From Escherichia coli 042 (GTDB taxonomy: Bacteria > Pseudomonadota > Gammaproteobacteria > Enterobacterales > Enterobacteriaceae): 64,000 nucleotides of DNA. Position 1 is the stretch's first letter; each line of letters starts with the position of its first letter. The position numbers and the translations under genes were made by a program. Below are positions 1 to 2,385 of this stretch, piece by piece. The notes beneath the pieces were generated by a model. It made no database searches and was not told the DNA's origin. It saw only the letters and a program-made list of their open reading frames with translations. Location: the NCBI RefSeq assembly GCF_000027125.1, contig NC_017626.1; one strand, written 5' to 3'.

Positions 1-1573
1 GCGCATAGCCGCCCTTCTCCCAACGTTCACTCAACTCGGCAAAGACATCAAAATCATTACGCGCTTCATAACGTGGCGGCACCACTTGCTTCATCGGCAC
101 CAGATGCTGATTACTGTAATCGCCGGTCATGGTGAGATCATTACGCTCAAACGAGGTGGTCGCAGGCAGAACGATATCCGCGTGTTTCGCCGCCGCCGTC
201 CAGAAGCATTCAGAGATCACCACCAGCTCCGGTTTTTGCCAGGCACGGATCAGGCGATTGGTATCCTGATGATGAGTAAAGTTGGCACCGCCCGCCCACC
301 AGATAAAACGAATATCCGGGAAATGTCGGTCCATACCGTTATGTTGATATGCGCCACCCGGGTTTTCCAGTGCTTCAACAATGCGGGCAACAGGGATTTT
401 ATCCACCGCATCGGTGCCGCCAGGCAAGCTGCCCTGCATGGAAGAGAGCACCGCAGCGCGGCGCGTGGGGTTACCACCATTGGCAAAATGGTAAGAAAGT
501 CCAAAACCGCCGCCGGGTGTGCCGATTTGCCCCAACATTGCCGCCAGCGTGACGATCATCCAGTGTTTTTGCTCACCAAACTGTTGGCGCTGCATTCCCC
601 AGCCAGCCATCAGCATGGTAGTATTTTGATGGAAAAGAGCCGCCAGTTCGCGGATTTTCGCTGCGCCAACACCACAAATCTCTGCCGCCCATTCGGCGGT
701 TTTCGCTATTCCGTCGCTCTCGCCCAGCAAATAAGAGGCGAAGACGGCATAACCTGTGGTGCAACGCGCCAGAAACGCTTCGTCGTGCCAACCATTTTCC
801 ACCAGCGTATGGGCGATCCCCAGCATCAGCGCAACATCGGTGCCCATGTGCGGTGCCACCCACTCCATTTTATCGCCAAAGAAATCGACGGTTTCCGATC
901 GCATTGGATCAATGCAGATCAGCTTTTTCCCGCTGTCACGCAGTGCGGAAAAGTAAGAAAGCCCCTGCTCATCGGATGCATTCCACGCAATTTTCAGCGT
1001 ATTGAGTGGGTTAGCACTCCATAGCACCACGACATCGCTATGTTCCAATACCAACGGCCAACTGGTTTGCTGTTGATAAACTTCGCTGCCCCCCACGACA
1101 TACGGCATGATCGCCTGTGCTGCACCGGTCGAATAATCCCCCAGATGCCCGGTATAACCGCCTGCAAGCGCCATATAGCGTTGTAATAATGTCGAGGCCT
1201 TATGCAGCACGCCGTTTGAACGCCAGCCGTAGGAACCAGCAAAAATCGATGCCGGACCATAAGCCTCACGAATGCGTTTATGTTGTTGGTGAATAAGCTC
1301 CAGCGCCTCATCCCAACTCACACGAACAAATGCATCCTGCCCGCGAATGCCTTGCGGGTTTTCCGGTGACGCGAGAAAGCCTTTGCGCACCATTGGAAAT
1401 CGTACCCGCGTATTGCTGTGAACCTGGTCGCGAACCGCGCTCTGCAAGGAGTTTTCCATTCCTGTGACTAACGCGCCACGCGAGCTAAACACGGTTTCGC
1501 CGTCGGTTTCAACCAGCATGGGCCCCCAGTGGGCGGCAGTCAGAACGGAATATCGTGAGGATGAGTTGGCCAA
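1..1573 (-). CDS. bisC: Biotin sulfoxide reductase BisC, N-terminal ~524 codons; gene continues past window start
   Basis: Minus-strand translation reads (L/M)[28 protein letters not shown]..., matching recalled BisC N-terminus. No in-frame ATG before the upstream stop, so the start is probably the TTG at 1571-1573. Not in ORF track because it is incomplete. Confidence 0.85.
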
Positions 1574-1725
1574 ACCGAAGACTCCTGAAAGGTTAGATGT
1601 ATTGAGCAGTTAAATATTACTTACAAATTTCCGAGTATTCCCAGGAATAATCTTCATGTTCACGCGGCATAATCTCCCGCCACGGAACCCGTGGCAAAGA
1701 ATAAAAAGTTTATTAAGGATTAACA

Positions 1726-2385
1726 ATGAAGAAACGTGTTTATCTTATTGCCGCCGTAGTGAGTGGCGCTCTGGCGGTATCTGGCTGCACAACTAACCCT
1801 TACACTGGCGAACGCGAAGCAGGTAAATCTGCTATCGGCGCAGGTCTGGGCTCTCTCGTTGGCGCGGGTATTGGTGCGCTCTCTTCTTCGAAGAAAGATC
1901 GCGGTAAAGGCGCGCTGATTGGCGCAGCAGCGGGTGCAGCTCTGGGCGGCGGCGTTGGTTATTACATGGATGTACAGGAAGCGAAGCTGCGTGACAAAAT
2001 GCGCGGCACTGGTGTTAGCGTAACCCGCAGCGGGGATAACATTATCCTCAATATGCCGAACAATGTGACCTTCGACAGCAGCAGCGCGACCCTGAAACCG
2101 GCGGGCGCTAACACCCTGACCGGCGTGGCAATGGTGCTGAAAGAGTATCCGAAAACGGCGGTTAACGTGATTGGTTATACCGACAGCACGGGTGGTCACG
2201 ACCTGAACATGCGTCTCTCCCAGCAGCGTGCGGATTCCGTTGCCAGCGCGTTGATCACCCAGGGCGTGGACGCCAGCCGCATCCGTACTCAGGGCCTTGG
2301 CCCGGCTAACCCAATCGCCAGCAACAGCACCGCAGAAGGTAAGGCGCAAAACCGCCGTGTAGAAATTACCTTAAGCCCGCTGTAA
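1726..2385 (+). CDS. yiaD: OmpA-family lipoprotein YiaD
   Basis: 219 aa ORF with lipobox (VSGC), Gly-rich linker and OmpA-like C-terminal domain ending NRRVEI; matches recalled YiaD. Confidence 0.93.
   Translation: MKKRVYLIAAVVSGALAVSGCTTNPYTGEREAGKSAIGAGLGSLVGAGIGALSSSKKDRGKGALIGAAAGAALGGGVGYYMDVQEAKLRDKMRGTGVSVTRSGDNIILNMPNNVTFDSSSATLKPAGANTLTGVAMVLKEYPKTAVNVIGYTDSTGGHDLNMRLSQQRADSVASALITQGVDASRIRTQGLGPANPIASNSTAEGKAQNRRVEITLSPL

Follow-up and report, generated by a model that had tools for sequence, protein, structure and literature searches.

Layout of the bisC start region

The 5' end of bisC, the gene for biotin sulfoxide reductase, lies close to the beginning of the window, by which we mean the whole 64,000-nucleotide stretch of Escherichia coli 042 DNA (contig NC_017626.1) that was analyzed. 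The gene is read on the minus strand, and an intergenic region of 152 bp separates it from its divergent neighbor, yiaD. The features that matter here, with the basis for each in brackets, are the following:

1..1570, minus strand: bisC codons 2 to 524 of 777, the gene leaving the window at its low end (translation; TIGR00509 match)
1457..1459, minus strand: ATG codon 39, the superseded start of the original 739-aa MG1655 entry (AAB18528.1)
1517..1519, minus strand: ATG codon 19, a rival start giving a 759-aa form in some automatic annotations (sequence look-up)
1571..1573, minus strand: TTG initiation codon of bisC (RefSeq CDS start, orthologue codon, and parsimony counts)
1582..1587, minus strand: Shine-Dalgarno sequence CAGGAG (core AGGAG, 1586-1582), with an 8-nt spacer to the TTG (sequence; conserved in orthologues)
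1610..1612, minus strand: in-frame TAA that closes the bisC frame upstream (sequence; the nearest stop in orthologues lies 4 to 73 codons upstream)
1669..1697, minus strand: candidate sigma-70 promoter of bisC, TTGCCA, 17 nt, GATTAT (consensus scan)
1726..2385, plus strand: yiaD, encoding an OmpA-family lipoprotein, the divergent upstream neighbor of bisC (annotation and sequence)

When the minus strand is read and translated in the bisC frame, the TAA at 1612-1610 is in frame and upstream of the TTG, and 12 sense codons lie between the two (CTG CTC AAT ACA TCT AAC CTT TCA GGA GTC TTC GGT). There is no ATG, GTG, or TTG among them. The TTG at 1573-1571 is followed by GCC AAC TCA TCC TCA CGA TAT TCC GTT, which encodes ANSSSRYSV, and the nearest in-frame ATGs in the 3' direction are codon 19 (1519-1517) and codon 39 (1459-1457). 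From the in-frame stop to the conserved domain there is thus a single ATG/GTG/TTG candidate, the TTG itself. An earlier, sequence-only reading had put the stop at 1610-1612 and the start at 1571-1573, and both positions are exact, base for base. It had also stated that no in-frame ATG occurs from the upstream stop to the conserved N terminus, which is borne out by the 12 codons.

The N terminus of BisC and its database versions

How is this start treated in the reference genomes? RefSeq begins the bisC CDS at the TTG in K-12 MG1655 (NC_000913.3, b3551, NP_418007.3), in K-12 BW25113, and in strain 18KM2445, the closest strain at 99.8% identity. Window position 1573, the first base of the TTG, corresponds to position 3716394 in MG1655. 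In all three the CDS is 2,334 nt and 777 aa long, and the local sequence is the same except for one synonymous CAT/CAC difference. An exact-sequence look-up identifies the 777-aa, TTG-initiated K-12 protein as the Swiss-Prot/UniRef entry BISC_ECOLI. A 501-nt query spanning the start matches 5,420 of the 5,426 complete E. coli genomes, where the features are always named bisC and yiaD. The reference annotation had been singled out beforehand as the place where a start at an ATG missing from this DNA might appear; the reference uses no such ATG. The TTG start of bisC is therefore already known.

Two shorter proteins are also in circulation, so that three N-terminal versions of BisC, of 777, 759, and 739 aa, stand side by side in public databases. 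By exact-sequence look-up, the 759-aa form, which begins at ATG19, is found on 516 contigs, K-12 DH10B among them. The 739-aa form, which begins at ATG39, is AAB18528.1, the original MG1655 entry. The TTG start is the current curated view, in place of the earlier ATG-based call. Because the databases still carry the 759-aa and 739-aa versions, the start has the standing of a curated inference. The literature search for BisC N-terminal peptide, Edman, or initiation-site ribosome-profiling data found none, and bisC is not mentioned in the supplements of an N-terminomics paper and an in-vitro initiation-profiling paper.

Could one of the ATGs be the true start, with the TTG being only a leucine codon of the leader? 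ATG19 has several points in its favor: ATG is the commonest start codon, the codon is used by the annotations just mentioned, and a GGGGG run stands just upstream of it. Against it, the run ends 3 nt before the ATG, too close for good Shine-Dalgarno spacing, and the protein family extends further upstream. Position 1 of TIGR00509 (bisC_fam) aligns to BisC residue 13, both in the window fragment and in the full-length K-12 protein, and PF18364 (Molybdopterin_N) spans residues 12 to 52. The family profiles thus begin at residue 12 or 13, upstream of the first in-frame ATG, and a start at codon 19 or 39 would truncate the conserved N-terminal domain. The loss would be greater for ATG39, which would delete most of Molybdopterin_N along with 26 positions of the bisC_fam profile. 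That start was once deposited with the 739-aa entry AAB18528.1, but the annotation has since been revised (NP_418007.3).

That the gene belongs to this family of MGD-containing S/N-oxide reductases is clear from the scores. The window fragment (524 of 777 aa) matches TIGR00509 over residues 13 to 520 with 754 bits, and the full-length K-12 protein scores 1,094 bits, above the cutoff of 1,017.55. RefSeq, too, names the locus bisC, and the protein has the cytoplasmic, signal-less form: only 14 residues precede the HWG motif, and there is no match to PF10518, the model searched for a twin-arginine signal.

The relatives of BisC help to explain where its N terminus falls. The periplasmic DMSO and TMAO reductases DorA, TorA, and TorZ/MtsZ share its fold and family, and BisC residues 6 to 10 line up with the start of the mature proteins. 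In the TorA profiles, residues 6 to 8 of BisC align to model positions 41 to 43, just after the Tat signal. In the mature chain of Rhodobacter DMSO reductase (1eu1), residue 8 aligns with BisC residue 10, and the residues upstream of ATG19 align to ordered N-terminal residues of this mature enzyme, a further point against ATG19. A PDB search returned no structure of BisC, the TMAO and DMSO reductases being the nearest solved relatives. The difference is that the periplasmic enzymes carry a twin-arginine signal upstream (visible in the relatives P0031 to P0064), whereas BisC starts directly at the mature domain. On these alignments, BisC amounts to the mature catalytic domain and has no signal peptide, its N terminus lying where the mature periplasmic enzymes begin.

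There is a practical side to this. Part of the N-terminal domain is missing from the 759-aa and 739-aa forms, and expression constructs for BisC should therefore begin at the TTG. Hundreds of public records keep the shortened 759-aa protein.

The start codon across the Enterobacteriaceae

For comparison, 80 orthologous loci were collected in one scan of species-representative genomes of the Enterobacteriaceae, at 82 to 98% identity over the first 258 residues. Together with the window they make 81 sequences from more than 25 genera, including Escherichia, Citrobacter, Salmonella, Klebsiella, Enterobacter, Kosakonia, Kluyvera, Raoultella, Lelliottia, Leclercia, Phytobacter, Trabulsiella, and Franconibacter. 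The homologous start codon is TTG in 76 of the 81, GTG in 4 (Leclercia, twice, Silvania, and Pseudenterobacter), TTA in 1, and ATG in none. The sequence CAGGAG(C), 7 to 8 nt before the start, is conserved in nearly all 80 orthologous loci. The site in E. coli thus combines the features of a Shine-Dalgarno-led UUG start, namely a sole start codon, a purine-rich Shine-Dalgarno sequence 5 to 10 nt upstream, and conservation in orthologues.

Within E. coli the region varies little. From -30 to +33, 4,162 of 5,426 complete genomes carry the 63 nt of the window unchanged, and 1,242 more have one to three differences. The single TTA comes from the draft genome of E. coli SCPM-O-B-8794 (L004:1501-1503), in which the rest of the bisC open reading frame is intact; the exact 63-mer with TTA has no match among the 5,426 complete genomes. 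It is either a private loss of the start codon or a sequencing or assembly error. Two other loci in the sample have in-frame stops within bisC, at codon 480 in Citrobacter koseri NCTC10786 (L028) and at codon 314 in Kosakonia oryziphila (L065), which may be pseudogenes or sequencing errors in species representatives. Wider sampling by a protein word search returned mostly truncated entries and, outside the Enterobacteriaceae, mostly paralogues with Tat signals rather than orthologues. Two additional loci were informative: a metagenome orthologue of 72% identity, with GTG preceded by GGAG, and a Mannheimia relative of 50% identity, which has ATG. Both fit loosely with the retention of TTG.

Where does coding-type conservation begin? 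The 81 sequences were anchored on the invariant HWG. The codons for T-A-A-H-W-G-P are all upstream of ATG19. Their first two positions do not vary, and the third has an entropy of 0.6 to 1.9 bits, except in the Trp codon, which is without a synonym and invariant. Averaged over 20 codons around HWG, entropy is 0.28, 0.10, and 1.36 bits at positions 1, 2, and 3, respectively. In the 12 codons before the TTG the three values are 1.62, 1.73, and 1.56 bits, and periodicity is absent. Periodicity that is present downstream and absent upstream indicates that the frame is translated in all of the species and begins at the TTG.

This pattern bears on all of the rival starts. The codons for residues 10 to 18 (VLTAAHWGP), which a start at ATG19 would leave untranslated, are conserved in coding fashion, and the aligned codon is ATG in only 61 of the 81 sequences, being ATT, GTT, GTC, ATC, ATA, CTT, or CTG in the others. 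Given also the profiles, we consider it very improbable that the 759-aa protein is the product, although low-level internal initiation at ATG19 is possible, given the GGGGG run. Coding-type conservation likewise reaches well upstream of ATG39, and initiation there is hardly credible.

A third alternative is a near-cognate codon further upstream, such as the CTG at 1609-1607, right after the stop, which would add a 12-residue extension. The frame is open from 1609, and CUG can initiate in E. coli at 1 to 2% of the efficiency of AUG (bioRxiv 10.1101/063800). However, no Shine-Dalgarno sequence precedes this CTG, and the in-frame peptide upstream of the TTG is neither conserved nor periodic in its codons. 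As listed above, the distance to the nearest in-frame stop differs among orthologues, and in some species the stop lies 4 to 7 codons before the TTG, directly 5' of the Shine-Dalgarno sequence, so that no other start is available there. We regard an upstream start as a most remote prospect. The RefSeq CDS boundary in three genomes, the comparative data, and the family profiles all back the TTG at 1571-1573 as the start of bisC, as the sequence-only reading had suggested. Chance occurrence is not at issue, since the case is one of a gene-start assignment that matches that boundary.

Is the TTG itself conserved, or merely the presence of some start codon? Parsimony changes were counted per site on a neighbor-joining tree of the 81 sequences, and 15 four-fold degenerate sites, all in invariant codons close to the bisC start, served as the neutral comparison. 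These sites show 7 to 30 changes each, with a mean of 20.3. The three bases of the start codon show 2, 0, and 1, and both of the first-base changes are T to G. Were the first base free to be A, G, or T alike, it should have changed about a dozen times. With two changes against about a dozen expected, the identity of the codon, beyond the presence of some start codon, seems to be under purifying selection, and the TTG of bisC itself appears to be its target.

Upstream elements, initiation, and a weak start codon

What else lies between yiaD and bisC? The two genes retain their divergent order in 68 of the 80 orthologous loci. Transcript levels of bisC increase 2- to 9-fold under H2O2 or HOCl (PMC12096835). 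At the candidate bisC promoter, the block tttgccac...gtggcggttgattatgacg is conserved across genera. Inside the promoter spacer, at 1695-1679, is a 7-bp inverted repeat, GCCACGG-GTT-CCGTGGC, whose arms covary in Klebsiella (GTCAC/GTGAC), and the adjoining block TTGATTATGAC is conserved across genera as well. Read in the plus-strand direction, the same block gives CATAAT and could instead be the -10 element of yiaD, whose mRNA would then have a stem-loop at its 5' end.

Closer to bisC is a palindrome, ATTCCTGGGAAT, at 1637-1648, which sits in a block (GAAAATTCC..GG.A....TC...A.TTTGTAA) conserved at the nucleotide level across genera; it may be a binding site for a regulator. An upstream open reading frame of 15 codons, MKIIPGNTRKFVSNI (ATG at about 1657, ending at the TAA at 1612-1610), runs over the palindrome and was rejected as a coding element. 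Its ATG is not conserved (Klebsiella has ACG), it has no Shine-Dalgarno sequence at a usable distance, and its similarity between genera is at the nucleotide level. Positions 1300 to 1900 of the window and seven orthologous loci were scanned against Rfam, and neither a riboswitch (Moco RNA included) nor a leader family was detected.

A different kind of element is seen in most genera other than Escherichia and Salmonella, in which the bisC leader contains a short hairpin. Its stem varies in sequence between genera while the pairing is kept (ACGGC/GCCGU, GCGAUG/CAUCGC, GACAGCG/CGCUGUC, GGCAGU/ACUGCC, and GCGGCGA/UCGCCGC). It is located at about -55 to -15 nt from the start (e.g., L051:1445-1490, L070:1445-1490, L031:1450-1490, and L064:1455-1490), and the order after it is an invariant ACCTGCA directly adjoining, then 8 to 14 nt, CAGGAG, and TTG. 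A folding energy of -5 kcal/mol or below is reached by 50 of 64 distinct 36-nt upstream segments, and the mean z score is -2.0. The hairpin stays with bisC even where the neighboring gene is not yiaD; it is absent from the window, having been lost in Escherichia and Salmonella. It matches no Rfam family, and RNAalifold on a MAFFT alignment of the leaders returned no consensus structure, a null result that reflects variable stems that do not align in register. The hairpin was documented one sequence at a time. Together with ACCTGCA it may form a leader element of the bisC mRNA.

How, then, would translation of bisC begin? Taking the annotation and the comparative data together, we are highly confident that translation of the gene begins at the UUG at 1573-1571, through ordinary initiation led by the Shine-Dalgarno sequence, and we infer that ribosomes initiate there in vivo. 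The 30S subunit would bind CAGGAG at 1587-1582, which would put the UUG, 8 nt further on, in the P site. The initiator fMet-tRNA would read the UUG, so that the protein begins with Met. Methionine aminopeptidase, by its known specificity, is expected to cleave off an initiator Met that is followed by Ala. In BisC, where Ala comes next, the Met is probably removed, which would give a mature N terminus of ANSSSRYSV on the product, a 777-aa cytoplasmic molybdoenzyme. In E. coli nothing points to RNA structure hiding the start, since the 80 nt from -40 to +40 are no more stably folded than shuffled sequence (z = 0.70).

Such a start is not exceptional. About 3% of E. coli genes begin with UUG, which has 10 to 100% of the efficiency of AUG in reporters (bioRxiv 10.1101/063800). 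Like the canonical UUG-initiated genes of E. coli, bisC has an in-frame UUG 8 nt after a strong Shine-Dalgarno sequence, read by the initiator tRNA and annotated in RefSeq and UniProt. There is no difference in kind between them, and bisC stands out only for the stability of its codon across genera. The AUU starts of infC and pcnB are a more distant comparison. They resemble bisC in having a non-AUG start to limit or regulate translation, but AUU is noncanonical, works at about 1 to 2% of AUG, and in infC serves autoregulation by IF3, whereas the UUG of bisC belongs to the canonical class. With UUG as its codon, bisC falls outside the infC type of regulatory, noncanonical starts, and no pointer to an autoregulatory loop was seen at the locus.

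A closer parallel is the GTG start of marR, which is conserved across the Enterobacteriaceae and experimentally favored over both ATG and TTG (PMC12012556). In marR as in bisC, a start weaker than ATG is kept family-wide with very few switches. The two differ in that marR encodes an autoregulating repressor for which the fitness effects of codon swaps have been measured, while bisC encodes an enzyme.

Why would a gene keep a weak start codon behind a strong ribosome-binding site? We tentatively suggest, at somewhat less than an even chance, that the weak TTG and the invariant, strong Shine-Dalgarno sequence are maintained together by selection in the Enterobacteriaceae. The combination might provide a set-point for the low abundance of BisC, which consumes Moco, or might make its synthesis sensitive to IF3 and initiator tRNA, in the manner of the marR GTG. 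In the first case, the weak codon would limit synthesis of a low-abundance, cofactor-consuming enzyme.

Overall, the TTG start of bisC is of little import in itself, as it is already curated and UUG is one of the three standard start codons of bacteria. The evidence for its conservation by selection across the family is the only mildly new point about the bisC start. With it, bisC joins a short list of candidate genes whose weak start codon appears to have been selected.
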